A model generated the notes under the pieces. It had not been told where the DNA came from. It did not search any database and saw only the letters and a list, made by a program, of their open reading frames with translations. A DNA stretch of 64,000 nt from positions 15,069-79,068 of the forward strand of contig JAFTUH010000040.1 of NCBI GenBank assembly GCA_017466375.1. Reading direction: 5' to 3'. This document shows positions 326 through 63,186 of this stretch, piece by piece. How positions within the stretch are numbered: the first letter of the stretch is position 1; the number at the start of each line of letters is the position of its first letter. This DNA is from Clostridia bacterium (GTDB taxonomy: Bacteria; Bacillota; Clostridia; Oscillospirales; CAG-272). The translations under genes were made by a program, and so were the position numbers.

Positions 326-2053
326 TTACGCCACCGTTTGCGTATCGCGCATGCCGTTCCACAGCTCGTGATAGATTCCGCGCTTGTCCAGCAGCTCGTC
401 ATGGCTGCCGCGCTCTGCGATGCCGCTGTCCGTTACAACGATGATCTCATCGGCATTCTTGATCGTGGTAAGTCTATGCGCAACGATGACCGTCGTCCGT
501 CCGCGGCACAGCTCCTCCAAGCTCTTCTGAATCATGTACTCCGTTGCGTTATCAAGCGCAGACGTCGCCTCGTCCAAAATCAGAATCGGCGGATTCTTGA
601 GGAACACACGCGCAATCGCCACGCGCTGCTTTTGACCGCCGGACAGCTTTAGACCGCGCTCGCCGACGACTGTCTCATACCCATCGGGCATCGACAGGAT
701 GTACTCGTGGATATTCGCGCGCTTTGCCGCCGTCTCGACCTCCTCACGGGTCGCATCGGGACAACCGTAGGCGATATTTTCATAAATTGTCGCATTGAAC
801 AGGAACACGTCCTGTGCGACGATACCGATATTCTTTCTGAGTGAAGCACGCGTCACGTCGCGGATATCCGTACCGTCGATACGGATCTCTCCGCCGAGGA
901 TCTCATAGAAGCGCGGGATCAGGTGGCAGATCGTCGTCTTGCCGCCGCCCGACGGACCGACAAGGGCAAGCGTCTTCCCTGCCTCAAGCGTGAAGCTAAG
1001 CCGATCCAGCACGCGCTTACCGTCCTCCGTATAGGCGAAATCGACGTTATCAAACGTGATCTCCCCGCGCACACTGTCCAGCTCGGCGGCATCGGGGGCA
1101 TCCTCCTCCGCCGGATAGTCGATGATTTCGCAAAAGCGCTTGAAGCCGCTCATGCCGCTTTGGTACTGCTCAATAAAGCCGGTCAGTCGGCGCACGGGAT
1201 TCATAAACAGGCTGATATAGATGAGGAACGCCGCAAAATCACCGGGCGTGATCTCCCCACGATAGCAGAAGACGCCGCCTGCCACGTACAATAGCACGTT
1301 CAGAACGTCCCCGATAAACGTCGTACCGGAGGAAAACTCCGCCATGACGCGGTACGCCTTCGCACGCGCCTTGACGAATTTCTTATTGCCGGCATCAAAC
1401 CGTTCGTTCTCGTACGCGCGGCTCGTGTATGCCTTGGCGACACGAATACCGGAGATGCTGTTCTCCAATGAGGCATTGATCTCGCCGATCTCCACTCTCG
1501 TCGCGGTAAACGCGTCGGACATTTTCTTGTGCTTCTTTGCGGAGAAAAGGATCATCACCGGCAGTGCGGCGAACACGATCAGCGTCAGCGGCAGATGGAT
1601 CGTAGACATCATAATGAACGAGCCGATCAGCATCACCGTGGAGATAAATAGATCCTCCGGTCCGTGGTGCGCAAGCTCAGAGATGTCCATCAGATCGCTG
1701 ACGATGCGCGACATGATCGTACCCGTTTTGTTGTTATCGAAATACGTCAGCGGCAATCTCTCCAAATGATCGAAGACGTCCCGGCGCATATCCGCCTGCA
1801 TCCGCACGCCGACGATGTGCCCCCAATACTGGATGAAATAGTTGAGTCCCATCTTAACGAGATAGATTCCAAGCAGCACACCCGCCCAGATGAGCAGCAG
1901 CTTGACCGCACGGTTGGGGATGTACGTATTGATCATCTCGCGCGTGATCATGGGGTAGACAAAATCGCACGCAGACAGGCAGAGCGCGCAGAAGAGATCC
2001 GCCAAAAACAGCCGCATATGCGGTCGATAGTAGCCAATAAATCGTTTCAGCAT
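326..2053 (-). CDS. ABC transporter, fused permease/ATP-binding protein (type I exporter, MsbA/LmrA-like)
   Basis: N-terminal multi-TM domain plus an NBD with Walker A GPSGGGKT, signature LSGGQKQR and Walker B ILILDEATS. Start moved from 2116 to ATG 2053 (MLKRFIGYY), which is preceded by GAAAGGA. Confidence 0.9.
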   Translation of the reverse strand: MLKRFIGYYRPHMRLFLADLFCALCLSACDFVYPMITREMINTYIPNRAVKLLLIWAGVLLGIYLVKMGLNYFIQYWGHIVGVRMQADMRRDVFDHLERLPLTYFDNNKTGTIMSRIVSDLMDISELAHHGPEDLFISTVMLIGSFIMMSTIHLPLTLIVFAALPVMILFSAKKHKKMSDAFTATRVEIGEINASLENSISGIRVAKAYTSRAYENERFDAGNKKFVKARAKAYRVMAEFSSGTTFIGDVLNVLLYVAGGVFCYRGEITPGDFAAFLIYISLFMNPVRRLTGFIEQYQSGMSGFKRFCEIIDYPAEEDAPDAAELDSVRGEITFDNVDFAYTEDGKRVLDRLSFTLEAGKTLALVGPSGGGKTTICHLIPRFYEILGGEIRIDGTDIRDVTRASLRKNIGIVAQDVFLFNATIYENIAYGCPDATREEVETAAKRANIHEYILSMPDGYETVVGERGLKLSGGQKQRVAIARVFLKNPPILILDEATSALDNATEYMIQKSLEELCRGRTTVIVAHRLTTIKNADEIIVVTDSGIAERGSHDELLDKRGIYHELWNGMRDTQTVA

Positions 2054-2091
2054 ACAAAATCCTTTCGGGAAGAATTGGATACGGCACAAAT

Positions 2092-2142
2092 ACGTAAAAA
2101 GGCGGGCTGCCGCCAATGGGAAAATCCCATAGGAAGCAGCCC
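2092..2142 (-). terminator. probable terminator downstream of ftsZ
   Basis: GGGCTGC (2104-2110) pairs with GCAGCCC (2136-2142), enclosing an inner ATGGGA/TCCCAT hairpin. On the minus strand it is followed by CCTTTTTAC. Confidence 0.5.
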
Positions 2143-2157
2143 TTCCCGTTTTCAGAA

Positions 2158-3288
2158 TCAGAACAGACCCGTATTCTGTGCGGAAGAATCCGTCTTGCGG
2201 TTCTTTTTGAGCATGGAGAGAATCTCGTCAAACTCGTCGTCGGAAATGGACGGCTGAACGGGCTCTGCAGGCTCCTCTTCCTTTACAGACTCGTTATTTT
2301 TTTTTTCATCGGCAGCGGATGCGTCATCGCCATTGCTGTCGAAACCGGTGGCAATAATGGTAATCTTCATCTTATCCTCGAGTGCTTCATCAAATGCAAC
2401 ACCGAAGATTACGTTTGCATCGGCGGATGCCTCGGAAGCAATCAGCGTGGAAGCAACGTCGATATCCTCCAGTCCGATGTCGGGGGAGGCGGTGATGTTG
2501 ACAAGGATACCCTTCGCGCCGCTGATCGAGGTCTCAAGCAGCGGGCTGGAGATAGCTGCCTTGGCAGCAAGCTCTGCCTTATCCTTGCCGGTTGCCTCAC
2601 CAACACCCATGTGCGCGTAGCCTGCATCCTTCATAACAGACGTAACGTCTGCGAAGTCGAGGTTGATGTAACCGGGGATATTGATAAGGTCGGAGATGCT
2701 CTGTACGCCGTGGCTGAGCACGCCGTCAGCGATCTCAAATGCGTTGAGGAACGTGATGCGGGTCTCGGAGACCTGCTTCAGTCTCTCGTTCGGGATGATA
2801 ACGAGAGAATCGACAAACTGACGGAAGTTGCAGATACCTGCCTCCGCCTGCGTCATTCTCTTTGCACCTTCGAATGCGAACGGCTTCGTTACGACACCGA
2901 CGGTGAGGATGCCCATCTCCTGTGCGATCTTTGCAACGACGGGAGCTGCACCGGTACCGGTACCGCCGCCCATACCTGCTGTGATGAAGACCATATCTGC
3001 ACCGGCGATGGCGCTCTTGATCTCCTCGATGCTCTCCTCAGCGGCACGGGCACCGATCTCGGGGTTAGCACCTGCGCCGTGACCCTTGGTGATCTTCTCA
3101 CCGATCGGAATCTTGTGCGTAGCGCTGGACTTTGCCAGGGACTGCTTGTCCGTGTTGATCGCGATGAATTCAACGCTTCTGATGTTGGAGCTGATCATAC
3201 GGTTGACAGCGTTGTTACCGCCGCCGCCGACGCCGATTACTTTAATATTGACGCCGATTTCGGAATTGTTATCGAGTTCGAATGCCAT
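2158..3288 (-). CDS. ftsZ: cell division GTPase FtsZ
   Basis: N-terminus [17 protein letters not shown] and tubulin signature [18 protein letters not shown] is preceded by GGAGGA. Last gene of the dcw cluster. Confidence 0.97.
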
Positions 3289-3570
3289 AGTGGAAATCCT
3301 CCGTTAATGTTTCTGTATTCTTTTGCTTTAATAAATGATGATTTTTACGTTTCCTCTGCCGGAGCAGCGGATAGGCGACAAATGCCTTTTATAATATAAT
3401 ATACTTTATTTCGGAATTTTGCAATATGTTTTTCCGAATTTCTCAAGTTTTTTTCTTGAATTTCGCGAATTTTCTGCCACTTTCACACAATATTTACATT
3501 TATCTGGATATTATACACTTGCCGATTTCCAGAAATTTGTTTTATACATGTGTAAAATTCCAGATATTTC
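3289..3570 (-). promoter_or_regulatory. 282-nt AT-rich non-coding region upstream of ftsZ (promoter/regulatory region)
   Basis: No ORF with an RBS. Strongly AT-rich compared with flanking genes. Contains -10-like boxes and phased GAATTTY repeats (see findings). Confidence 0.45.
3396..3424 (-). promoter_or_regulatory. candidate sigma-A type promoter for ftsZ
   Basis: Minus strand reads TTGCAA (3424-3419), a 17-nt spacer, then TATTAT (3401-3396), about 110 nt upstream of the ftsZ ATG. Confidence 0.35.
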
Positions 3571-41464: not shown

Positions 41465-42037
41465 TTACGGCAGTTCAAACTCTCTGTCGATGCATTCGTA
41501 GATCATCCGATAGGTTGCCTCGGCGTTTTCCAGCGAGCCGTTTTTCATCAGAATCACCGCACCGAACAGCAGCGATCGGATAATATACACCTTCCGCTGC
41601 ATGACCTCGGAGGGCATATTGACGGAAGCACAGTAGTGCTGCACGACGTCGTTGGAAAGCACGGAGATTTTTCCTTTTTCCCGGATCTGCGACTCATCCA
41701 GCGAGCTGTCATTCAGAAGAATGATCGCCTGGAACCCGGGATTCTCGCACAGAAATCGGATATACGCCAGGCACAGATCCAAAATCATCGCGCGGTAGTC
41801 CCCCGGATGCAAAAGCAGAACCTCCTTCTGCACCTCTGCCCAACGGCGGTTTATGTAGCGAAGCACTTCAAGAATCAGTTCATTTTTATTTTTGAAGTGC
41901 TTATACGGCGCGGCACATGAGACGCCGCACTCTGCTGCGACACGGCGGATCGAAAAATCAGCTACACCGTGATCCGCAATCTCACGGATCGTCGCTTTGA
42001 TGATCCGCTCACGGGACGTTTCACTCGGCTGCCGCAT
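41465..42037 (-). CDS. TetR/AcrR family transcriptional regulator
   Basis: N-terminal HTH: RERIIKATIREIADHGVADFSIRRVAAECGVSCAAPYKHFKNK. Overlaps the upstream ligase gene by 17 nt. Confidence 0.9.
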   Translation of the reverse strand: MRQPSETSRERIIKATIREIADHGVADFSIRRVAAECGVSCAAPYKHFKNKNELILEVLRYINRRWAEVQKEVLLLHPGDYRAMILDLCLAYIRFLCENPGFQAIILLNDSSLDESQIREKGKISVLSNDVVQHYCASVNMPSEVMQRKVYIIRSLLFGAVILMKNGSLENAEATYRMIYECIDREFELP

Positions 42038-43745
42038 TGCCGTTATCCCCCTCCGTCATATTTTCCTCGGCGGCACGCTTGATCTTGCGCGTCGTCGTCT
42101 TGACAAACTCCGTTTTGCGCACGTTGACTTTCATGATACGGCGGAACGACGGCAGCATCTCATTGACCTCGCGCACGATGCCGAGCATGATCTCGCGCAC
42201 CTTTTCGCGGTATTCGGGGCTGTCGGGCGTAATGCCGTCCTTCGCAAGACGTTCGTCCACCGCTTCGTAATCCGGGAATACGGCGGCAGTCACGACAACG
42301 TCGCGCTCGCCCTCCTCACCGAAGACCATCGACTCCTTCACAAGCGGATGCTTGTCGAGGTAATACTCCAGCTCCTCGGGGAAGATCTTCTTGCCGTTCT
42401 GCGTGACGATCATGGATTTGCGCCGTCCCGTGATCTGGTACGCACCGTTCTCCTTCTGTCTGGCAAGATCGCCCGTGCGGAACCAGCCGTCCGTGAGTAC
42501 GCGCGCCGTCTCTTCGGGATTTTTATAGTAGCCGAGCATGACGTTCGGTCCGCGCACGGCAAGCTCGCCGACACCGTTTTCATCGGGATCGAGCAGCTTG
42601 ACATCCACCCCGCTGACGGGATAGCCTATATCGTCTGCACAGCGGTAGAAATCACTGTGCATGATACAGACGGGGGAAGTCTCCGTCAGACCGTATCCGA
42701 TCAGCACCTGAAATCCGAAGCGTTCGAGATCCTCATACACCTCGGGTGAAAGCGGCGCAGCACCGGAGAGAATCCGCGTAAGTCTGCCGCCGAACGCATC
42801 GCGCACGGTAGAGAAAATACGGCGGGAGAGCGCGGAATTTGACCGTCCGACCGCATCGGAAGCACGCCGTTGGAGAGCAAGCACAGCCGAACCGCCCTTG
42901 ATATTCTTATACTTTCTCAAAATCGAATTGCGCAGTGTCTCGAGAATCAGCGGCACCGCGATAAAGACCGTCGGGGAAAACAGCTTGAAATCCTCCGTCA
43001 GACGGCGAAGCGAATCATTATACGCAATACTGCCGCCCGCATACAGAATCGCGAGCAGTCCGGCAGTGCATTCATACGTATGATGGAGAGGCAGAACGGA
43101 GAGAACGCGATCCTCCGTACCGACGCTGACCTTGCGCACGACGCGTACGATATCGCTGCACACATTGTACTGCGAGAGCATGACTCCCTTGGCAAGTCCG
43201 GTCGTACCGGAGGTATAAAGCAGGATACCGAGCGCCTTCGGATCGACTGTATGATCGGCAAACGACGTGTCTCCAGTCACGAGAAGATTCTCCCCCGTGC
43301 GGATCATATCGGACATATTCTCGGCGGGCAGGCGGATCCAGTCGCCGGTGAGCGCATTGATTTTGTCCTCCATACCGCCCATATAGACGATGGCGGACAG
43401 CTCGGAGTCATCAATCACGTACTGCAGCTCCTCCGGCTTGAGTTCCTTATCGAGCGGCACAATGATACCCGTCCCCGCGCACACGGAAAGGTACGTCAGC
43501 GCCCACTCGTAGCAGTTTTTGCCAAGCACGCCGATCTTTTTTCCCTCAAGCTCCCGACTGTTCAGATACGTGGAAAACGCCTTCACGTTCTCCCCAAGTT
43601 CTGCGTACGTAACCTCGCGCACGCCTTTTCCTTCTCTATAGATAAAAGCACATTCGTCATGAAACAGCTCTGCACCCGTAAGCACGATTTCCCGTACGGT
43701 AAAGACATCCCGCACGTCGTAAACAAGTCTTCCGTTTTGATTCAA
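42021..43745 (-). CDS. AMP-dependent synthetase/ligase (long-chain fatty acid--CoA ligase-like)
   Basis: AMP-binding motif LYTSGTTGLAKGVMLS and GYGLTETS. TTG start at 43745 preceded by GGAGGA with a 7-nt spacer. Confidence 0.88.
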   Translation of the reverse strand: MNQNGRLVYDVRDVFTVREIVLTGAELFHDECAFIYREGKGVREVTYAELGENVKAFSTYLNSRELEGKKIGVLGKNCYEWALTYLSVCAGTGIIVPLDKELKPEELQYVIDDSELSAIVYMGGMEDKINALTGDWIRLPAENMSDMIRTGENLLVTGDTSFADHTVDPKALGILLYTSGTTGLAKGVMLSQYNVCSDIVRVVRKVSVGTEDRVLSVLPLHHTYECTAGLLAILYAGGSIAYNDSLRRLTEDFKLFSPTVFIAVPLILETLRNSILRKYKNIKGGSAVLALQRRASDAVGRSNSALSRRIFSTVRDAFGGRLTRILSGAAPLSPEVYEDLERFGFQVLIGYGLTETSPVCIMHSDFYRCADDIGYPVSGVDVKLLDPDENGVGELAVRGPNVMLGYYKNPEETARVLTDGWFRTGDLARQKENGAYQITGRRKSMIVTQNGKKIFPEELEYYLDKHPLVKESMVFGEEGERDVVVTAAVFPDYEAVDERLAKDGITPDSPEYREKVREIMLGIVREVNEMLPSFRRIMKVNVRKTEFVKTTTRKIKRAAEENMTEGDNGNAAAE

Positions 43746-43800: not shown

Positions 43801-43829
43801 ATTATACCATAAATATGCGCCGCTGTCAA
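43801..43829 (-). promoter_or_regulatory. consensus sigma-A type promoter of the ligase-tetR operon
   Basis: Minus strand reads TTGACA (43829-43824), a 17-nt spacer, then TATAAT (43806-43801). Confidence 0.6.
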
Positions 43830-43865: not shown

Positions 43866-43894
43866 TTGACAGCGGGCATCGGGCGTGCTATAAT
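43866..43894 (+). promoter_or_regulatory. consensus sigma-A type promoter of the aro leader/operon
   Basis: TTGACA (43866-43871), a 17-nt spacer, then TATAAT (43889-43894). Confidence 0.6.
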
Positions 43895-43948
43895 AAGCCG
43901 TAGAGAACAAATTTGCATGTTTATGCAGACAAGGAGATACGAAGTACG

Positions 43949-44011
43949 ATGGCTTCCACGTTCGCATTTGCATACTATTACTTTTACTTTTTTACGTTTC
44001 AGAACGCGTAA
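43949..44011 (+). CDS. candidate Phe/Tyr-rich leader peptide (20 aa: MASTFAFAYYYFYFFTFQNA)
   Basis: ATG 43949 with AAGGAG at 43931-43936. Ten of 20 codons are Phe/Tyr, seven of them consecutive. TAA at 44009-44011. Lies between a consensus promoter and a terminator, upstream of the Phe/Tyr biosynthesis operon. Confidence 0.5.
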   Translation: MASTFAFAYYYFYFFTFQNA

Positions 44012-44078
44012 CGGGTAAGAGTGATTTTTGCTGCGAAAATAAAGCCGCATCATTTCGTATATATTTACGATTGACAGG

Positions 44079-44113
44079 CCTCACAGTGAAAACACTGTGG
44101 GGCTTCTTTTATT
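44079..44113 (+). terminator. intrinsic terminator in the aro leader (candidate attenuator)
   Basis: 10-bp stem CCTCACAGTG/CACTGTGGGG (44079-44088/44093-44102) with loop AAAA, followed by CTTCTTTTATT. It sits 84 nt upstream of the aroF ATG. Confidence 0.6.
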
Positions 44114-44196
44114 CTTTATCCGTCTGCACTGACGCATGCATGAAAATTTTTGCAAACAAATCCGATTATATGTAAGAAACAAAAGGAGATACCCCC

Positions 44197-45201
44197 ATGA
44201 TTGCAGTACTGAAAAGCACAGCTACCGAACAGCAGATTGAAAACATTATCGAATGGATCCGTTCCGTCGGACTGGACGTTCATATTTCCCGCGGTCACTA
44301 CCAGACTGTCCTCGGTCTGATCGGCGATACCCGCAAGATCGATGAAGATCTGCTCAGCGGTCTGGATATCGTTGAGACGGTCACGCGCATCAGCGAGCCG
44401 TTCAAGCAGGCAAGCCGCAAATTCCATCCCGAGGATTCCGTCATCGAGGTCGCTGATACCTCCGTCGGCGGCGACGTGTTCGCATTCATGGCAGGTCCCT
44501 GCTCCGTCGAGAGTGAGGAACAGATCATCTCCATCGCCCGCGACGTAAAAGCGCTCGGCGCCACGATGCTCCGCGGCGGTGCATTCAAGCCGCGTACCTC
44601 TCCGTACGATTTCCAGGGACTGAAAGCAGAAGGACTTGAGCTGCTCCTGCTCGCCAAGAAGGAAACCGGACTGCCGATCGTTTCCGAAATCATGAACGCG
44701 AACCACCTGCCCATGTTCGAGGACGTGGACGTCATTCAGGTTGGTGCGAGAAATATGCAGAACTTCGAGCTTCTGAAGGAGCTCGGACGGACGAAGAAAA
44801 CGATTCTTCTGAAACGCGGTCTTGCCAACACGATCAAGGAGCTTCTGATGAGTGCCGAGTACATCATGGCAGGCGGCAACGAGAACATCATCCTCTGCGA
44901 GCGCGGCATCCGCACGTTTGAGACGTACACGCGCAATACGCTGGATATCTCCGCCGTATCGGTCATCCGCGAGCTGTCCCATCTGCCCGTGATCGTGGAT
45001 CCGAGCCACGCGACAGGCGTTGCCAAATACGTCAAATCCATGGCACTCGCCGCCGCAGCAGCCGGTGCACACGGCGTCATGATCGAGGTACACAACGATC
45101 CCGCACGCGCGCTGTGCGACGGACCGCAGGCACTCACGCCCGCCCAGTTCGGGGATGTCGCCAAAGGCGTACACGCCGTCCTCGACGCGATCCGCGAGTA
45201 A
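44197..45201 (+). CDS. aroF: 3-deoxy-7-phosphoheptulonate (DAHP) synthase, type I-beta, with an N-terminal ferredoxin-like regulatory domain
   Basis: ~75-aa N-terminal domain (MIAVLKSTATEQQIENIIEWIRSVGLDVHISRG), then the catalytic barrel FMAGPCSVESEEQ...GAFKPRTSPYDFQG...DPSH. RBS AGGAG. Confidence 0.93.
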   Translation: MIAVLKSTATEQQIENIIEWIRSVGLDVHISRGHYQTVLGLIGDTRKIDEDLLSGLDIVETVTRISEPFKQASRKFHPEDSVIEVADTSVGGDVFAFMAGPCSVESEEQIISIARDVKALGATMLRGGAFKPRTSPYDFQGLKAEGLELLLLAKKETGLPIVSEIMNANHLPMFEDVDVIQVGARNMQNFELLKELGRTKKTILLKRGLANTIKELLMSAEYIMAGGNENIILCERGIRTFETYTRNTLDISAVSVIRELSHLPVIVDPSHATGVAKYVKSMALAAAAAGAHGVMIEVHNDPARALCDGPQALTPAQFGDVAKGVHAVLDAIRE

Positions 45202-45225
45202 AGAAACCATACCCCGGAGGCAGTT

Positions 45226-46062
45226 ATGACAGTCGGAATTGTCGGACTTGGACTGATCGGCGGCTCGATGGCGAAGGCCTACAAGCAAAACGGGACGGAC
45301 ACCGTCCTCGCCGCCGAAATCGATATCCCCACGCTGGAATACGCGCGTCTGATCGGTGCCATTGACGGCACACTGACGGAGGATGCACTCGGCACGTGCG
45401 ATCTGCTCCTCATCGCGCTGTATCCCGAGGCGGCGATCGCGTATCTTACCAAGATCGCGCCGATCGTGAAAAAAGACGCCGTCGTCATCGATCTGTGCGG
45501 CACGAAGCGCACCGTATGCGAGGCAGGATTCGCCCTCGCCAAGGAGCACGGCTTCACCTTCGTCGGCGGCCATCCGATGGCGGGTCGGCAATACTCCGGC
45601 TTCAAGTACGCGGATGCAAATCTGTTCCGCGGCGCGCCGATGGTCATTGTACCGCCTACACGGGATGATATTTTCCTGCTCGATCGGGTGAAGAGAGTGC
45701 TCGCCCCCGCCCAGTTCGGACGCTTCTCCGTCACTACGGCGGATAAACACGACGAGGTCATCGCGTTCACCTCGCAGCTTGCGCACGTCGTATCCAATGC
45801 GTACGTAAAAAGCCCGACGGCACAGATTCACAGCGGATTTTCCGCCGGCTCGTACAAGGATTTGACGCGCGTGGCACGGCTGAATGAGGACATGTGGAGC
45901 ATGCTGTTCGTGGAGAACAAAGAATACCTCGCCTCCGAGCTTGACACGCTGATTGGTGAGCTTCAGAAATACCGCGACGCAATCGCCAGCGGCGACACGG
46001 ATACGGTACGCGAGCTTCTCCGTGACGGCAGAATCCGCAAGCAGGAAATCGACGGTAAATAA
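45226..46062 (+). CDS. tyrA: prephenate dehydrogenase
   Basis: VGIVGLGLIGGSMAKA Rossmann motif and GGHPMAG. RBS GGAGG. Confidence 0.9.
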   Translation: MTVGIVGLGLIGGSMAKAYKQNGTDTVLAAEIDIPTLEYARLIGAIDGTLTEDALGTCDLLLIALYPEAAIAYLTKIAPIVKKDAVVIDLCGTKRTVCEAGFALAKEHGFTFVGGHPMAGRQYSGFKYADANLFRGAPMVIVPPTRDDIFLLDRVKRVLAPAQFGRFSVTTADKHDEVIAFTSQLAHVVSNAYVKSPTAQIHSGFSAGSYKDLTRVARLNEDMWSMLFVENKEYLASELDTLIGELQKYRDAIASGDTDTVRELLRDGRIRKQEIDGK

Positions 46063-46081
46063 TTAAATTAGGAAGAAAAGT

Positions 46082-47134
46082 ATGCAGACAGTATCGGTAA
46101 ACGTATCCCGCCCGTATGAGGTGAGGATCGAGACGGGCATTCTCGCCCGTGCCGGGGAAGAAATCCGCAAAACGCTCGGCGAGGGACGCATTATGATCGT
46201 CACGGACGACACGGTGGACGCCCTCTGGGGCGCACGGCTGGAATCCTCGCTGACGGAGGCGGGAGTTTCGTTTAAGAAATTCGTGATTCCGCACGGGGAG
46301 GCGTCGAAAAACGCGCAAAGCTGGCTCGCCCTGCTCGAAACGCTCGCTGAAAACGCATTCACGCGCACGGATATCCTCTGTGCGCTCGGCGGCGGTGTCG
46401 TCGGCGATCTCACCGGATTTGCCGCGGCTACGTTTTTGCGCGGTATCCGTTATGTCGGAATCCCCACGACGCTCCTCGCCATGGTTGATTCCTCCGTCGG
46501 CGGCAAAACCGCGGTCGATCTCAGCCGGGGCAAGAACCTCGCGGGGGCGTTCCATCATCCTTCGCTCGTCCTGTGCGACCCCGGCGCGCTCTCCACACTG
46601 CCCGAGGAGGTATTTGCGGACGGCATGGCGGAGGTCATCAAATACGGCGTGCTCGGTGATGCGGAGCTGTTTGAAATATTGAAAGACCGCGATCATCTCC
46701 CGATGGAGGAGGTCATCCGCCGCTGTGTCGCGATGAAAGCCGCAATCGTGGAGGAGGACGAAACGGATCACGGCAAGCGAAAGCTGCTCAACTACGGACA
46801 TACCGCCGGTCACGCAATCGAGGCACGTGCGAATTTCACGATGCTGCACGGTCACGGCGTGGCGGCAGGCATGGTGATCGCGGCGCGGTATGCGCACTCG
46901 ATCGGACTGTGCGGCGGCGGAATTATCGAGGAGATCGCCTCGCTCGTGCGCCTGTACGGACTGCCCGATGCATCCCCGTATCCGGCGTCGGAACTTACTG
47001 AAACGGCACTCCGCGACAAAAAGCGCGAGGGCGGCAGGATCGATCTCGTTCTGCCTGAGCGGATCGGCAGCTGCGTGCTCCACCGCGTCGGCGTCGATGC
47101 ACTGCCCGCATTCCTCAGCGGAGGCGCGGTATGA
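46082..47134 (+). CDS. aroB: 3-dehydroquinate synthase
   Basis: GGGVVGDLTGFAAATFLRGIRYVGIPTTLLAMVDSSVGGKTAVD and HGHGVAAGM. Confidence 0.93.
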   Translation: MQTVSVNVSRPYEVRIETGILARAGEEIRKTLGEGRIMIVTDDTVDALWGARLESSLTEAGVSFKKFVIPHGEASKNAQSWLALLETLAENAFTRTDILCALGGGVVGDLTGFAAATFLRGIRYVGIPTTLLAMVDSSVGGKTAVDLSRGKNLAGAFHHPSLVLCDPGALSTLPEEVFADGMAEVIKYGVLGDAELFEILKDRDHLPMEEVIRRCVAMKAAIVEEDETDHGKRKLLNYGHTAGHAIEARANFTMLHGHGVAAGMVIAARYAHSIGLCGGGIIEEIASLVRLYGLPDASPYPASELTETALRDKKREGGRIDLVLPERIGSCVLHRVGVDALPAFLSGGAV

Positions 47135-48405
47135 TCTTCACCTTTACAAAATCCCCGACGGGTGGGGCGATCCCTGCAATCCCGTCGAAATCGGCGGCAC
47201 ATCGCCTGCTCATCTGCGCCGCGTTTGCAGATGCGCCCTGCACGATCATCTGCCCCGTCACAAGCGAAGACATCGACGCGACGGCACGCGTGCTGAACGC
47301 CCTCGGAGCGAACATCACCCGCACGGGGGACGGTTTTTCCGTCATTCCTGTCGGCACGGTACAGCGCGGTGCGATTCTCGACTGCGGTGAAAGCGGATCG
47401 ACACTCCGATTCATGCTGCCCGTCGCGGCGGCGATCGGTGCACAGGCGCGTTTCGTACGCCACGGTCGGCTCGCGCAGCGTCCCCTCTCCCCGCTTTATG
47501 AAGAAATGGCGCGTCACGGCGCAATCCTGCCCGACGACGCAGCGATCGATCCGCTCACGGTGGGCGGCAGGATGACGGCAGGTGAGTACACGATCGCCGC
47601 GAACGTATCCTCCCAGTTTGTAAGCGGACTGCTCCTCGCAATGCCGCTGACCGGCGGCAAATGTGCCGTCAATCTGACCGACAGAATCGAGTCTGAGGAT
47701 TATATCCGCATCACGGCATCGGCAATGGCACGATTTGGCGCGGCTCCCGCCGTCTCTGCGGACGGACGGCGATACGAAGGCGGAATCCTCCCCTACCGCT
47801 CCCCCGAAAATTGCACGGTGGAGGGCGACTGGTCCAACGCGGCGCTCTGGCTCGCGGCAGGTGCCATCGGAAAAGAGCCGGTCACCGTAACGGGACTGGA
47901 TCCCGACTCCCCGCAGGGAGACAGACGAATCGCAGACGTGCTCCGTGCCTTTGGCGCGGCAGTCACCGTCGAGGGCGATCGCGTAACCGCCGCCCCTGCG
48001 CCCCTGTCCGGCATCACGCTGGACATGTCACAGATTCCCGATCTCACCCCCGTGATCTCCGCTGTTGCGGCGGCGGCCAAGGGCGAGACGGTCATCGCAG
48101 GCATCGCACGGCTTCGCATCAAAGAAAGCGACCGCGCCGCCGCTATTGAAGAGATGCTGACCTCCCTCGGTGCGGACGCACGGGCAGAGGAAGACCGCAT
48201 CGTGATCCGCGGCGGACACCCCCTGCACGGCGGCACCGTATCCTCCGTGCGCGATCACCGCATGGTGATGTGCGCGTCACTCCTCGCCAATCTTGCGGAT
48301 GGGGACGTCTCCGTCACAGAGGCAGAGGCTATCCGCAAATCCTATCCCGGTTTCGCCGAGGACTTCCGTAAGCTCGGCGGCATCCTTACTGAGTCGGAGG
48401 CATGA
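47131..48405 (+). CDS. aroA: 3-phosphoshikimate 1-carboxyvinyltransferase (EPSP synthase)
   Basis: PSKSAAHRLLICAA, GESGSTLRFMLP, DHRMVM motifs. ATGA overlap with aroB. Confidence 0.93.
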   Translation: MIFTFTKSPTGGAIPAIPSKSAAHRLLICAAFADAPCTIICPVTSEDIDATARVLNALGANITRTGDGFSVIPVGTVQRGAILDCGESGSTLRFMLPVAAAIGAQARFVRHGRLAQRPLSPLYEEMARHGAILPDDAAIDPLTVGGRMTAGEYTIAANVSSQFVSGLLLAMPLTGGKCAVNLTDRIESEDYIRITASAMARFGAAPAVSADGRRYEGGILPYRSPENCTVEGDWSNAALWLAAGAIGKEPVTVTGLDPDSPQGDRRIADVLRAFGAAVTVEGDRVTAAPAPLSGITLDMSQIPDLTPVISAVAAAAKGETVIAGIARLRIKESDRAAAIEEMLTSLGADARAEEDRIVIRGGHPLHGGTVSSVRDHRMVMCASLLANLADGDVSVTEAEAIRKSYPGFAEDFRKLGGILTESEA

Positions 48406-49496
48406 CAGACATGTTTCTCAGAAATCTTCACCTTGACATCTACGGCGGATCGCATGACGAAAAAATCGGCGTGCGCGCCGTCGGACTGCCGCCCGGTGAG
48501 GCGGTGAATACAGACACGCTTCAGTCCTTCCTCGCGCGGCGTGCGCCCGGATCGACGAAATACGGTACCCAGCGCAAAGAGCCGGACGCGCCTGTATTCC
48601 TCTCGGGAATCACGGACGGAAAGCTGGACGGCGAGACGCTCGAAGCTGTAATCTACAACACAAATCAGCGCTCGGGCGACTACCCTGCCGTGCCGGACGT
48701 ACCGCGCCCATCCCATGCGGATTTCGCCGCGATTCAGAAATACGGGCAAGCCGTGGATCTGCGCGGCGGCGGACATTTTTCCGGCAGACTGACCGCCCCT
48801 CTTTGTATCGCAGGCGGCATCGCCCTGCAGATCCTCGCACGGCGCGGCATCTTCGTCGGTGCACACATCTCCTCCGTCGGTGAGGCGGATGATGCGCGGT
48901 TTGATCCGCTTACCGTATCAAAAGATGATTTCGACGCGGTGCTCGCGCACGGATTCCCCGTGATCGATACGGCTGCCGGTGAACAGATGCAGGCGATCAT
49001 CGATGACGCCCGTCTCGCATGCGACTCCGTCGGCGGTACAATCGAATGTGCCGTGATCGGGCTTCCCGCCGGTCTCGGCGAGCACATGTTCTGGGGGATG
49101 GAAAACCGCATCTCCCATGTAGCGTTCGGCGTGCCCGGGCTGAAGGGAATCGAATTCGGTGCGGGATTTGATCTCGCCCGTATGCGCGGCTCCGAAGCGA
49201 ACGATCCGTTCCAAACGGACGGAGAGCGCGTATTCACCACGAAAAACAACAGCGGCGGCATCCAGGGCGGCATGACAAACGGTATGCCACTGACGTTCCG
49301 CTGTGTATTGAAGCCGACGCCTTCCATCGGCATGGAGCAACAAAGCGTAAGCCTCTCCAAAATGGAGAACACGAAAATCTCCGTCGGCGGTCGGCATGAT
49401 CCTTGCATTCTCGTACGCGCCGTCCCCGTTATCGAAGCGGTCGCCGCCATTGCGGTCCTCGACGCGCTGCTCGATCCCGCCTTGCTTCCTTTGTAA
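48402..49496 (+). CDS. aroC: chorismate synthase
   Basis: YGGSHDEKIG, RPSHADF and GGGHFSGR motifs. The start is ambiguous: ATG 48402 overlaps the aroA stop, while ATG 48411 has better spacing from GGAGG. Confidence 0.9.
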   Translation: MTDMFLRNLHLDIYGGSHDEKIGVRAVGLPPGEAVNTDTLQSFLARRAPGSTKYGTQRKEPDAPVFLSGITDGKLDGETLEAVIYNTNQRSGDYPAVPDVPRPSHADFAAIQKYGQAVDLRGGGHFSGRLTAPLCIAGGIALQILARRGIFVGAHISSVGEADDARFDPLTVSKDDFDAVLAHGFPVIDTAAGEQMQAIIDDARLACDSVGGTIECAVIGLPAGLGEHMFWGMENRISHVAFGVPGLKGIEFGAGFDLARMRGSEANDPFQTDGERVFTTKNNSGGIQGGMTNGMPLTFRCVLKPTPSIGMEQQSVSLSKMENTKISVGGRHDPCILVRAVPVIEAVAAIAVLDALLDPALLPL

Positions 49497-49526
49497 AAAA
49501 TTCAGATATATATTAGGAGTTTAACC

Positions 49527-50672
49527 ATGGATCTTTCAGAACTGAGAAAACAAATCGACACCATTGACAATGATCTCCTCCGCCTGTTCATGGAGCGTAT
49601 GCAGATCTCCAACAGCATTGCAGAATACAAAAGAGAGCACGGTCTGCCCGTCCTCGACAGTGCCCGTGAGCGCGAGCTGCTCGCAGGCATCGCAGAACGC
49701 GCCGGGGAGGACATGGACGAATACGCCGTCGTGCTGTATTCCACGATCCTCTCTTTGAGCCGCTCGTACCAGCACAAGAAGCTCGCACCCGAAAGCAAAT
49801 ACGGTGCGATCATCCAAAACGCGCTGGACACGACCGAAAAGCTGTTCCCCGAGAAGGCGCGTGTCGCCTGCCAGGGCGTGGAGGGCGCGTACTCCCAAAT
49901 CGCCGCCACGAAGCTGTTCAAGCTCCCCTCCATTCTCTATTTCAGCGCATTTGACGGCGTGTTCGCCGCCATTGAATCGGGCATGTGCGACTACGGCGTT
50001 CTGCCGATCGAGAACAGCACCGCCGGCTCCGTCAAGAGAGTGTACGATCTGATGGTCGATCACAATCTCTATATCAATCGCTCCATGCGCGTAAAGATCG
50101 AGCATCATCTGCTTGCCAAGCCCGGCACGAAGATGACCGACATCAAGGAGATCTTCTCTCATGAGCAGGCGATCGATCAGTGCGCCGCTTTCCTGCGCAC
50201 GTTCAAGGATGTAAAAATCACCGTATGCCAGAATACTGCCGTCGCCGCGCAGATGGTCGCACAGTCCGATAGAAAGGACGTTGCGGCGCTCTCTGCCCGC
50301 GCTTGTGCCGAGCTGTACGGACTGGATTCTCTCGCGGACAGCGTACAGGACAAGAGCAACAACTACACGCGCTTCATCTGCGTATCCCGCCGTCCCGAGA
50401 TTTATCCCGGCGCTGACCGCACGAGCATCATGCTCGTCACCCCGCATAAGCCCGGTGCGCTCTACAACGTGCTGGCACGCATCAACGCGCTCGGTCTGAA
50501 CCTCTTGAAACTCGAGTCCCGCCCGATTCCCGAGAGAGAATTCGAGTTCATGTTCTATTTCGACATCGAAGGCTCGGCGTATGCACCGGAGCTCACCGAG
50601 CTGATCTCCGAATTGGAAGCGGACAGCGAACAGTTCAAGTATCTCGGCACGTATGCTGAGACGATCGGCTGA
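49527..50672 (+). CDS. pheA: bifunctional chorismate mutase / prephenate dehydratase (P-protein type, with C-terminal ACT domain)
   Basis: N-terminal CM_2 (LSELRKQIDTIDNDLLRLFMERMQIS), the PDT domain (VACQGVEGAYSQIAA...TRF), then an ACT-like end. Confidence 0.92.
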   Translation: MDLSELRKQIDTIDNDLLRLFMERMQISNSIAEYKREHGLPVLDSARERELLAGIAERAGEDMDEYAVVLYSTILSLSRSYQHKKLAPESKYGAIIQNALDTTEKLFPEKARVACQGVEGAYSQIAATKLFKLPSILYFSAFDGVFAAIESGMCDYGVLPIENSTAGSVKRVYDLMVDHNLYINRSMRVKIEHHLLAKPGTKMTDIKEIFSHEQAIDQCAAFLRTFKDVKITVCQNTAVAAQMVAQSDRKDVAALSARACAELYGLDSLADSVQDKSNNYTRFICVSRRPEIYPGADRTSIMLVTPHKPGALYNVLARINALGLNLLKLESRPIPEREFEFMFYFDIEGSAYAPELTELISELEADSEQFKYLGTYAETIG

Positions 50673-50673
50673 T

Positions 50674-51912
50674 ATGAGTGAAACAAAAATCTACGGACTG
50701 CTGGGGGAGAAGCTCGGACACAGCTACTCTCCGCAGATCCACGCGCACCTCGGAGAGTACGAATACCGTCTGTTTGAACGGGCGGAGGAGGACGTGCCCG
50801 CGTTTCTGAACTCGGGTGAATTTGAAGCGATCAACGTAACGATCCCGTACAAAAAGACGGTCATGCCGTACCTTGCGGAAATCTCCGACGAGGCGATCAA
50901 AATCGGCTCGGTGAATACGATCACGCGGGTAGAAAACGGCCTGCGCGGAGATAATACGGATTACTACGGCTTCTCCTATATGCTCGCCGAAAGCGGCATC
51001 GACGTCAGAGGCAAAAAATGCCTCGTTCTCGGCTCAGGCGGTGCATCCGTGACTGCGCAGGCGGTGCTTGCCGATCTAGGTGCGATCCCCGTAGTGATCT
51101 CCCGCGGCGGTGAGAACAATTATGACAATCTCGACCGCCATGCCGATGCATCCGTGATCGTGAACACAACACCGGTCGGAATGTACCCCAAAAACGGCGT
51201 CTCCCCGATTGATCTGTCGCTCTTCCCCGCCCTCACCGGCGTGGTCGATATGATCTACAATCCGCGCCGCACTGCGCTGATCCTTCAGGCGAAAGACCGC
51301 GGCATCCCTGCCGTGAGCGGACTGTCTATGCTCGTCGCGCAGGCAAAGCGTGCCAATGAGCTTTTCTTTGCCCGTCCGTTGCCCGATACGGTTACCGAAG
51401 AGGTGATCCGCAAAACGAGACGGCAGATGGACAACGTGATCCTGAGCGGTATGCCCGGCTGCGGCAAATCAACGGCGGGCATGCGGCTCGCCGAACGGCT
51501 CGGCTTCGATTTCGCCGATACGGATGAGGAGATCGTGCAGATGACAGGGCGCACGCCTGCCGAGATTATCAAGGCGGAGGGCGAGGACACGTTCCGTAAA
51601 ATCGAGCATGACGCCGCGTGTGCGCTCGGCAAACGAAGTCACACCGTGATCGCGACCGGCGGCGGCATCGTCACACGGGCGGAAAACCGCGATCCGCTCC
51701 GTCAGAACGGCACCGTGATCTATCTCACACGACCGCTTGAAAAGCTTGCGACGGGAGGCAGACCGCTGACAGCGAAAAACGGCGTGCAGGCGCTGTTTGA
51801 TACGCGCCGCCCGCTGTATGAATCCTGGGCGGATGCGTGCGCCGTCTGCAAGGATGACACGGAAGAAACCCTACAAAATCTACTCGCCGCCATCGATGCG
51901 GCAAAGGAGTAA
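50674..51912 (+). CDS. aroE: fused shikimate dehydrogenase (AroE) - shikimate kinase (AroK)
   Basis: Residues 1 to ~250: GEKLGHSYSPQIH...NVTIPYK...NTD...LGSGGAS. From ~252: shikimate kinase with Walker A GMPGCGKST, DTDEEI and IATGGG. One uninterrupted frame. Start ATG 50674, 1 nt after the pheA stop. Confidence 0.9.
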   Translation: MSETKIYGLLGEKLGHSYSPQIHAHLGEYEYRLFERAEEDVPAFLNSGEFEAINVTIPYKKTVMPYLAEISDEAIKIGSVNTITRVENGLRGDNTDYYGFSYMLAESGIDVRGKKCLVLGSGGASVTAQAVLADLGAIPVVISRGGENNYDNLDRHADASVIVNTTPVGMYPKNGVSPIDLSLFPALTGVVDMIYNPRRTALILQAKDRGIPAVSGLSMLVAQAKRANELFFARPLPDTVTEEVIRKTRRQMDNVILSGMPGCGKSTAGMRLAERLGFDFADTDEEIVQMTGRTPAEIIKAEGEDTFRKIEHDAACALGKRSHTVIATGGGIVTRAENRDPLRQNGTVIYLTRPLEKLATGGRPLTAKNGVQALFDTRRPLYESWADACAVCKDDTEETLQNLLAAIDAAKE

Positions 51913-51915
51913 TGT

Positions 51916-52350
51916 ATGCGAATTTTGATTATCAACGGACCGAATCTGAATATGCTCGGCGTACGTGAGCCGTCCGTCTACGGCACGGGAAGTTATGAAC
52001 AGTTGTGCGCGATGCTGCACGGCTGGGCGGATATGCTGGACGTCGAAATCGAGATCTTCCAGTCGAATCACGAGGGCGCGATCGTGGACGAAATCCAGGA
52101 GGCACTCGGGAATTTCGACGGCATCGTGATCAATCCGGCGGCGTACACGCACACGAGCGTCGCGATCCTCGACGCGCTCAAGGCGGTATCGATCCCGACG
52201 GTGGAGGTGCATATCTCCGACGTGAATGCAAGAGAGGAATTCCGCCGCCACTCGTTCGTGTCCCTCTATGCGATGAAGACGATCGCCGGCTTGGGATTCG
52301 ACGGCTATCGCGTAGCACTGGAAACCTTGAAAACCGCGCTTGCCGAGTAA
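51916..52350 (+). CDS. aroQ: type II 3-dehydroquinate dehydratase
   Basis: MRILIINGPNLNMLGVREPSVYG...QSNHEGAIVD...INPAAYTHTSVA. Confidence 0.95.
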   Translation: MRILIINGPNLNMLGVREPSVYGTGSYEQLCAMLHGWADMLDVEIEIFQSNHEGAIVDEIQEALGNFDGIVINPAAYTHTSVAILDALKAVSIPTVEVHISDVNAREEFRRHSFVSLYAMKTIAGLGFDGYRVALETLKTALAE

Positions 52351-63074: not shown

Positions 63075-63105
63075 ACAGTATACCATAATTCCTTATTGAT
63101 TTCAA
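63075..63105 (-). promoter_or_regulatory. candidate promoter P2 (extended -10), duplicate of P1
   Basis: Minus strand reads TTGAAA (63105-63100), a 17-nt spacer whose last 3 nt are TGG, then TATACT (63082-63077). Copy 2 of ACAGTATACCATA. Confidence 0.45.
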
Positions 63106-63140
63106 CAGATATCGGGAAAGATTTTCGCACGCAAACGCAT

Positions 63141-63186
63141 AAAAGCATAAGAAAAAGCGGCCAAAGCCGCTTTTTCTTATGCTTTT
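63141..63186 (-). terminator. long perfect hairpin terminator after the surface protein gene
   Basis: 21-bp perfect stem AAAAGCATAAGAAAAAGCGGC/GCCGCTTTTTCTTATGCTTTT with loop CAAA. It overlaps the TAA stop at 63185-63187. Confidence 0.75.

Follow-up and report, generated by a model that had tools for sequence, protein, structure and literature searches.

A candidate leader-peptide attenuator responsive to Phe and Tyr upstream of the shikimate/Phe/Tyr operon in a Clostridia bacterium and its relatives

The window analysed here is a stretch of 64,000 nucleotides from a Clostridia bacterium (Oscillospirales, CAG-272; assembly GCA_017466375.1, contig JAFTUH010000040.1, positions 15,069 to 79,068), which contains, immediately upstream of aroF, a short open reading frame (ORF) rich in Phe and Tyr codons placed between a promoter and an intrinsic terminator. 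This leader most probably (we estimate about 0.85) constitutes a ribosome-mediated, leader-peptide transcription attenuator that would sense charged tRNA-Phe and tRNA-Tyr and thereby control readthrough into an eight-gene shikimate/Phe/Tyr operon, as judged from comparison of sequences. An earlier note on this DNA had proposed classical leader-peptide attenuation at this locus, and that reading is supported by a leader ORF conserved in 68 of 79 related loci, by three mutually exclusive helices, by covariation and by linkage to aroF, which together point to the putative regulatory function.

All elements of the leader lie on the forward (+) strand. A sigma-A/sigma-70-type promoter (43866-43894) displays the -35 box TTGACA (43866-43871) and the -10 box TATAAT (43889-43894), which match the consensus at 12 of 12 positions and are separated by a 17-nt spacer with a TG extension. 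Transcription is predicted to start at about position 43901, about 48 nt 5' of the leader ATG, itself located 55 nt past the -10 box. The Shine-Dalgarno (SD) sequence AAGGAG (43931-43936), confirmed by re-reading the sequence, lies 12 nt 5' of the ATG of the leader ORF (43949-44011), which comprises 20 codons plus TAA and encodes MASTFAFAYYYFYFFTFQNA. The peptide contains six Phe, four Tyr and no Trp, such that half of its residues are aromatic, and seven of these follow one another as YYYFYFF. Promoter, SD sequence and leader composition are thus as the earlier note had described them, the TG extension being an addition. The uninterrupted aromatic run is encoded by TAC TAT TAC TTT TAC TTT TTT (Y9-F15; 43973-43993), which are the predicted ribosome stall sites, while extra Phe codons are located at 43961-43963, 43967-43969 and 43997-43999. 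Among the short ORFs of the window, 2346 on the two strands together, the leader ORF displays the highest aromatic density, with 8 aromatic residues in 10 against 5 for the runner-up, and it is the sole ORF with at least 6. The intrinsic terminator (44076-44113) comprises a 13-bp stem (44076-44088 paired with 44093-44105), an AAAA loop and the tail CUUUUAUU, with a hairpin energy of -21.4 kcal/mol (z = -5.75). The 10-bp hairpin previously placed at 44079-44102 is therefore present, but it represents only the G+C-rich core of this longer stem (44076-44105). No promoter-like site was found in the window between the terminator and aroF, which is preceded by its own SD sequence AAGGAG (44183-44188) and starts with an ATG at 44197 (44183-44199 overall). 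With 92 nt, the window has an unusually long stretch from terminator to aroF, most relatives having 20-60 nt.

Three alternative helices can be predicted for the leader transcript. Region 1 (43961-43989) is the 5' strand of an anti-antiterminator hairpin, termed P1, and comprises 43961-43966 and 43970-43972, located at the Phe-Ala codons, and 43977-43989, located at the Tyr/Phe codons. Region 2 (44013-44037) provides the 3' strand of P1 through the pairings 44013-44025/43977-43989, 44029-44031/43970-43972 and 44032-44037/43961-43966. An apical extension of P1 (43992-43997/44006-44011) takes in the stop codon (44009-44011). The segment 43958-44041 folds into P1 with an energy of -27.2 kcal/mol (z = -5.1), and the pairing of 43977-43989 with 44013-44025, previously noticed by eye, constitutes the core of this minimum-free-energy hairpin. 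Region 3 (44084-44096), the antiterminator partner, runs from the upper 5' arm of the terminator across the loop into the 3' arm, of which it takes in the first 4 nt. The antiterminator pairs 44025-44033 with 44084-44092 and 44020-44023 with 44093-44096; the fold of 44012-44096 has an energy of -22.0 kcal/mol (z = -2.6), and the duplex between regions 2 and 3 reaches -16.2 kcal/mol against -9.0 +/- 2.2 kcal/mol for shuffles. P1, antiterminator and terminator are mutually exclusive, since 44020-44033 is common to P1 and the antiterminator and 44084-44096 is common to the antiterminator and the terminator. The folds, suggested as a check in the earlier note, contain competing terminator and antiterminator structures with overlapping coordinates. 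The remark that no convincing antiterminator could be recognised is overturned by comparison with related loci, in which the pairing that joins 44020-44033 to 44084-44096 in the window is maintained and covaries with the terminator. The window combines four features of attenuators of this class, namely an ORF with SD sequence and start codon, tandem Phe/Tyr codons, a terminator reached without an intervening promoter, and exclusive 1:2, 2:3 and 3:4 helices.

Further structure was observed in and around these helices. The minimum-free-energy fold of the whole 5' region has an energy of -90.3 kcal/mol (z = -6.6). In this region, 43914-43930, located in the 5' untranslated region ahead of the leader SD sequence, pairs with 44123-44141 past the terminator (UGCAUG..UGCAGAC with GUCUGCA..GCAUGCA), thus enclosing the attenuator in readthrough transcripts. 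When 44012-44114 was folded without region 1, GGGUAAGAG of region 2 (44013-44021) paired with the U tract CUUCUUUUAUUC (44104-44113) while the terminator hairpin remained intact; this pairing may be an effect of composition.

The proposed mechanism involves leader translation, ribosome stalling, a kinetic choice between helices and a physiological response to Phe and Tyr supply, each of them predicted from the arrangement described above. In the basal state, region 1 would pair with region 2 as P1, so that region 2 is locked, the terminator forms and most transcripts end at about 44110. When Phe or Tyr is scarce, the ribosome would stall within YYYFYFF (codons 9-15) and cover region 1, leaving region 2 single-stranded. 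Region 2 would then capture region 3 once the latter is transcribed, removing the nucleation site of the terminator and allowing the polymerase to enter aroF. Under replete conditions the ribosome would run on to the stop codon, which borders region 2, and depart, after which P1 would re-form and termination would follow; in half of the relatives, the ribosome would instead translate right across region 2.

To place the leader in a comparative context, 80 loci of the closest aroF relatives (65-78% identity) were collected, 79 of them with enough upstream sequence, and short ORFs with at least 6 Phe/Tyr/Trp in 10 residues were sought within 500 nt upstream of aroF. The loci belong nearly all to Clostridia, and include Oscillospiraceae such as Sporobacter termitidis, Flintibacter, Lawsonibacter, Pseudoflavonifractor and Hominicoprocola, as well as metagenome-assembled genomes (MAGs) of Acutalibacteraceae and Ruminococcus. 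Two MAGs are labelled Emergencia, which NCBI taxonomy assigns to Peptostreptococcales, and the aroF protein identical to that of the window was matched on metagenome contigs only. An aromatic leader ORF was identified in 68 of the 79 loci, at 70-230 nt upstream of aroF, against 3/79 for the reverse complement, 1/79 for shuffles and 0/70 for the segment located 1-1.5 kb upstream. An artefact of composition is excluded because the controls gave 0-3 matches compared with 68, which disposes of the caveat that T-rich DNA alone would yield Phe codons. Examples of the encoded peptides are MNNNFFAAEYFYFYFYSEKR and MKSTLFAAAYFFYFFFYFICGK.... Two more loci were accepted by inspection, one with a Tyr-only leader in a Faecalibacterium MAG and the other on an incomplete contig. 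In contrast, about 10 of the 80 loci (L011, L014, L048, L059, L064, L068, L073, L075, L076 and L077) displayed no aromatic leader within 2.5 kb upstream and no Rfam match, T-box included.

Statistics per leader cover 69 leaders. The start codon is ATG in 64 of these, an SD-like 4-mer is present within 20 nt of the start in 56, with a spacing of mostly 6-12 nt, and 58 loci have a promoter that agrees with the consensus at 10 or more of 12 positions and is no further than 130 nt from the leader ATG (1/69 in shuffles), the median distance ahead of the ATG being 33 nt. A strong hairpin followed by a U tract was observed between leader and aroF in about 65 of the 69 loci. The leaders comprise 21% Phe, 16.5% Tyr and 0.3% Trp, and their remaining two frames are interrupted by 1.2-1.8 stops per leader. 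Both synonymous codons are in use for each amino acid (299 TTT and 56 TTC, 115 TAT and 162 TAC), the codon order is varied, and the Phe/Tyr excess reaches past the block that is paired in P1. An aromatic codon run with synonymous variation, which the earlier note had singled out as a check on orthologues, is thus conserved upstream of aroF. The peptides are 14 to 42 residues long and end differently according to where the stop codon falls, while the RNA helices are kept. Two classes can be distinguished. In 34 loci, the window included, the stop is located at the start of region 2 (-6 to +16 nt), while in 32 loci the ORF crosses region 2 and stops 25-60 nt later, still at least 17 nt before the terminator; the C-terminal motifs ...KVKVLFAANN and ...FCC[KRN] of these long leaders correspond to region 2 translated in frame. 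Over the family, the leader stop lies at least 17 nt (median ~44 nt) ahead of the terminator and 70-230 nt ahead of aroF.

The Faecalibacterium leader is divergent, as its peptide MLMARYAYYYVLYGKCRA has five Tyr and no Phe; it is located ~80-135 nt upstream of aroF and is followed by a terminator. This observation suggests that the sensed amino acid could shift within the family.

Conservation of the helices was assessed with two alignments, A1, a MAFFT alignment fitted to no structure, and A2, a covariance-model alignment of 66 loci fitted to P1 and the terminator only. The consensus of region 1 is UUUGCAGC followed by UAYUUUUACUUU, which represent Phe-Ala-Ala codons and then Tyr-Phe-Tyr-Phe codons, respectively. 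Region 2 has the consensus AGUAAAAGUGAUUUUUGCUGCAAA and is located past the stop in short leaders and within the ORF in long ones, while the terminator apex has the consensus GCAGUGAAA(N)CACUGC, a degree of conservation that is unusual for a terminator. Inspection served to define P1 and the antiterminator, and pair counts were then used to test them; RNAalifold applied to the MAFFT alignment recovered the terminator base only. On A1, P1 and terminator together were paired in 82% of cells, compared with 71% after column shuffling and 39-49% when partners were slid by 1-3 columns, and their covariation was 0.40 against 0.21 in shuffles, none of 500 being as high. Separately, P1a and P1b were paired in 74-76% and 82-85% of cells in the alignments, against 38-49% with slid partners. 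The antiterminator was paired in 74% of cells on A1 (69% column-shuffled; 33-60% slid by 1-3 columns), with a covariation of 0.236 against 0.173 in shuffles (0/500 as high), and in 73% of cells on A2, from whose model it was absent, against 30-65% when slid. The terminator stem on A2 was 92.5% paired and all 12 of its 12 pairs had changed on both sides. Compensatory changes in the stems, which the earlier note had suggested as a further check, are thus present in the terminator, and covariation exceeds that of all 500 shuffles for both structures. One antiterminator pair illustrates the joint constraint: 44 loci have U-A at this position and 20 have U-G, while no locus leaves it unpaired, the A of the terminator 5' arm changing to G together with a U to C change on the opposite side of the terminator, while the region 2 partner remains U.

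Complementarity between regions 2 and 3 is also evident without any alignment. The median duplex energy was -18.3 kcal/mol for cognate pairs, compared with -10.9 kcal/mol for dinucleotide-shuffled region 2 and -12.5 kcal/mol for non-cognate partners, and z was below -2 in 50 of 66 loci. Sub-lineages differ in sequence yet stay complementary, as seen in the pairs GGCUAAUUUGUG/CACAGGUUAGACC and, in the window, GAGUGAUUUUUGCUG/CAGUGAAAACACU.

The effect of ribosome position was modelled by blocking the bases that a ribosome would cover, either at each of the Phe/Tyr codons in turn or at the stop. In equilibrium folding of the whole leader the terminator was dominant, with a probability of ~0.96, whether region 1 was free, covered by a stalled ribosome or the ribosome was at the stop, and the proposed switch would therefore have to be kinetic. 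In the E. coli trp leader the 3:4 helix is likewise more stable than the 2:3 helix, and the switch is generally accepted as kinetic. Because equilibrium masking did not displace the terminator, a truncated-transcript test was used along with the duplex energies, in which co-transcriptional folding was approximated by transcripts that end before the terminator 3' arm and the read-out was how far upstream partners occupied the 5' arm of the terminator. Over the family, median occupancy was 0.55 without a ribosome, 0.69 with a ribosome stalled on the Phe/Tyr run and 0.45 with a ribosome at the stop (Wilcoxon p ~1e-9). In the window, occupancy increased from 0.40 in the free transcript to 0.77 in the stalled state.

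Several observations weigh against attenuation as proposed. At equilibrium the terminator retains a probability of ~0.96 despite masking of region 1, which holds for most loci as well as for the window. With a ribosome parked at its stop codon, the window transcript still has 44025-44033 free, and occupancy is then 0.70 compared with 0.77 in the stalled state. As this stretch remains exposed, repression in the window probably relies on release of the ribosome and refolding of the much more stable P1, and not on steric blocking alone. The UACUUUUACUUU block is in frame as Tyr-Phe-Tyr-Phe in 66 of 66 aligned loci, a count that is partly circular, as the ORFs were chosen by aromatic content, and the conservation of this block is not purely a coding signal because it is also constrained by RNA pairing. 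Finally, the U tract of the window terminator is interrupted and the SD-ATG gap of its leader is 12 nt; this gap, considered long in the earlier note, is indeed at the upper end of the family range of 6-12 nt, although five loci, the window included, share it.

The double constraint on the Tyr/Phe block lends itself to another explanation, in which a small molecule, tRNA or protein controls the terminator by binding to the hairpins, the ORF being a by-product of a conserved U/A-rich RNA. The block is itself a conserved helix strand, so its conservation needs no translation, and T-box and protein-mediated attenuation are common in Firmicutes (PMC2965389). Nevertheless, such an RNA-only switch appears improbable, as it leaves unexplained the ATG in 64 of 69 leaders, the SD-like site in 56 of 69 and the fact that the Tyr/Phe frame alone is open. 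The Phe/Tyr excess past the paired block, the varied codon order and the use of synonymous codons also argue for translation, and the Faecalibacterium locus retains a Tyr-rich ORF despite its diverged sequence. In addition, the structure is a plain interrupted hairpin that displays no conserved unpaired pocket, and no Rfam family, T-box included, was detected at gathering thresholds in the window or in 20 related loci.

Should the leader be translated, control might still be exerted through Rho-dependent polarity, mRNA stability, or translational coupling or reinitiation boosting aroF. The preference for the terminator at equilibrium in every state is compatible with this, and a general reinitiation role of leader genes has been proposed (PMC4833913). 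The distance from the leader stop to both terminator and aroF is, however, too large for coupling, the intrinsic terminators with their U tracts are conserved, and the complementarity of region 2 to the terminator apex, specific to each locus, would be left without purpose, making this explanation slightly less probable still than an RNA-only switch. That the ORF encodes a small, functional hydrophobic peptide and has the terminator to itself, aroF being transcribed independently, is very improbable: hydrophobicity and a motif, FAAxYFYFYF, found in similar form at different loci speak for it, yet the length of 14-42 residues and the variable C-termini contrast with the retention of the RNA helices, the five family peptides searched match nothing in Pfam or NCBIfam, the element accompanies aroF at over 160 loci and the window holds no promoter-like site from which aroF would be independently transcribed. 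That the ORF arose by chance in T-rich intergenic DNA beside an ordinary terminator could be considered in view of the A+T-rich composition of the region (G+C 0.39), but is refuted by the comparative data, with 0-3 matches in controls against 68, a leader that is unique among 2346 short ORFs, and a covariance-model E-value of 5e-19; the probability that remains for it is negligible. Leader-peptide attenuation is the reading retained here.

The covariance model of the element identified one copy in the window (43944-44113; 106 bits, E = 5e-19) and 66 matches in the 80 loci. Two weak matches in the window, at 44067-44200 on the reverse (-) strand (22 bits) and at 63080-63186 on the forward (+) strand (17 bits), were rejected as noise, the second being located at a bidirectional terminator between unrelated genes. 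A DNA pattern of the leader core retrieved at least 120 metagenome loci; among the matches listed with readable downstream sequence, 102 lead into aroF, which is all but two. Counting relatives and metagenome loci together, over 160 loci link the leader element with aroF.

The two exceptions differ from each other. At one of them, L182, no aro gene was seen within 2.5 kb downstream of the leader. At the other, L107 (OGMF01000420.1), the leader core is located at 3377-3421 on the reverse (-) strand and encodes the peptide MSILVFAAAYYYFYFIYSVSKSDFCCN, with promoter and terminator, but does not precede aroF. It is followed by a phenylacetate-CoA-ligase-like gene (AMP-binding_C_2; 1787-3109, -) and then by an indolepyruvate/pyruvate:ferredoxin oxidoreductase-like gene (45-1790, -), and a further promoter-like site occurs past the terminator, ahead of the first gene. 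These genes likely represent an arylacetate-to-arylpyruvate route making aromatic keto-acids, an assignment from gene similarity that would also fit a Phe/Tyr sensor.

Searches of family databases returned no known counterpart of the element. In E-value mode, Rfam gave only chance-level matches, such as the trpB motif RF04312 (20.6 bits against a threshold of 59), which was matched via the terminator alone. Five family peptides found no match in NCBIfam (E up to 10) or in Pfam (E up to 1). No description of the leader element in Clostridia was found in keyword searches of an incomplete literature collection; the survey of attenuators across bacteria by Lopatovskaya et al. 2010 may hold an earlier prediction.

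The architecture nevertheless resembles that of several known systems. The Escherichia coli pheL-pheA and trpL-trpEDCBA attenuators (cited in PMC11802643) comprise, like the window, a promoter, an SD sequence, a short ORF with tandem codons for the end product and a terminator before the first structural gene, together with 1:2, 2:3 and 3:4 helices, regulatory codons in region 1 and a stop codon at the edge of region 2. The Clostridia element differs from the E. coli attenuators in having no sequence or covariance-model similarity to them and a host outside Proteobacteria, in sensing, as predicted, Phe and Tyr in one run and controlling the common pathway with both terminal branches, and in an antiterminator that extends into the terminator loop and 3' arm. 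The aroR-aroF attenuator of Corynebacterium glutamicum (Neshat et al. 2014), in which stalling at aromatic codons enhances readthrough, is alike in placing a Phe/Tyr-containing peptide upstream of an operon that starts with the DAHP (3-deoxy-D-arabino-heptulosonate 7-phosphate) synthase gene aroF, as summarised in PMC11802643. The aroR leader, however, belongs to an Actinobacterium, has only a Phe-Tyr-Phe triplet and was reported to respond to Phe and not to Tyr, whereas the Clostridia leaders hold 7-10 aromatic codons with Phe and Tyr nearly equal; the likeness is drawn from the published description. Together with aroR-aroF, the closest precedent is uORFC-13-1 (Brewer et al. 2021), a predicted upstream ORF reported only from Acholeplasma, a Firmicutes-related lineage, and from unassigned environmental sequences (24 representatives) and proposed to sense the speed of Phe incorporation, which has a promoter, a ribosome-binding site, a start codon and a Phe-coding U run directly before a terminator and occurs exclusively upstream of aroF (PMC8632094). 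The agreement of the window with this motif is one of architecture only; uORFC-13-1 is described as coding for "at least one" Phe (PMC8632094), in contrast with the long mixed Tyr/Phe run and defined antiterminator of the Clostridia family.

The statement in the earlier note that Firmicutes are better known for T-box and TRAP control is fair. Leader-peptide attenuation is nonetheless not unprecedented in this phylum, because leader attenuators have already been predicted upstream of hisS/hisZ (PMC2965389) and as the Acholeplasma aroF upstream ORF (PMC8632094). The His leader-peptide attenuators upstream of hisS and hisZ are predicted in Bacilli and in Clostridioides difficile (PMC2965389; PMC4833913, citing Lopatovskaya 2010). 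They are comparable with the present element as Firmicutes attenuators located where a T-box would be expected, and are unlike it in the amino acid and genes concerned and in the absence of any sequence relation. T-box riboswitches of aro, phe and tyr genes pursue the same goal, linking tRNA charging to an intrinsic terminator upstream of aromatic genes. A T-box senses tRNA by direct binding, whereas the sensor of the Clostridia element, which has neither T-box fold nor T-box sequence, would be the translating ribosome.

The element is real and widespread, and on the sequence data it appears to represent an undescribed case of a known mechanism rather than a new principle, its function being putative. 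It is rather likely that these leaders form a previously undescribed, bivalent Phe plus Tyr attenuator family, widespread in Clostridia (Oscillospiraceae, their allies and Emergencia-labelled MAGs), that takes the usual place of a T-box and governs a whole shikimate/Phe/Tyr supraoperon, with an antiterminator that invades the terminator loop and 3' arm, two ORF architectures, and occasional recruitment to a PaaK/Ior-like arylacetate-to-arylpyruvate operon. Such a family would provide a clear and abundant case of classical attenuation in Firmicutes, where tRNA-sensing T-boxes are expected, and one in which a single leader integrates two amino acids to control a whole pathway. It would supply many gut and rumen Clostridia with an unannotated regulatory element that is directly testable in cultured carriers such as Sporobacter termitidis DSM 10068, Flintibacter faecis BX5, Pseudoflavonifractor sp. 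AF19-9AC and Hominicoprocola fusiformis CLA-AA-H269, and as a new RNA or leader family could improve genome annotation. It may also help to explain how gut commensals tune the synthesis of aromatic amino acids that feed host-relevant aromatic metabolites, and could serve as a compact Phe/Tyr-responsive part for engineering anaerobes.

The operon downstream of the leader (44197-52350, +) comprises, from Pfam assignments, aroF, tyrA, aroB, aroA, aroC, pheA (chorismate mutase-prephenate dehydratase, CM-PDT), an aroE-aroK fusion and aroQ. These eight genes represent the common shikimate pathway with the Phe and Tyr branches and include no trp genes, in agreement with the gene content claimed in the earlier note. 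Leaders free of Trp thus fit an operon that lacks trp genes and whose end products are Phe and Tyr. The end of the operon was placed at 52350 because the next ORF encodes an unrelated Wzy_C-type protein. Shikimate dehydrogenase and shikimate kinase are fused in the aroE-aroK ORF of 419 residues (50653-51912). The DAHP synthase I encoded by aroF (44197-45201) bears an N-terminal ferredoxin-like FXD domain (PF18152). In Thermotoga-type DAHP synthases the FXD domain mediates feedback inhibition by Tyr and Phe. If this role holds here, Phe and Tyr would be sensed both allosterically and at the level of transcription.

On the other side of the leader, a second perfect TTGACA-17-TATAAT promoter with a TG extension (43801-43829, -) is arranged back to back with the leader promoter at a distance of 36 nt. 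It faces a divergent AMP-binding (acyl-CoA ligase-type) gene (42021-43745, -), which is followed by a gene for a TetR-family regulator (41465-42037, -). The presence of two promoters with 12 of 12 consensus matches within one intergenic region of 200 nt is unusual.

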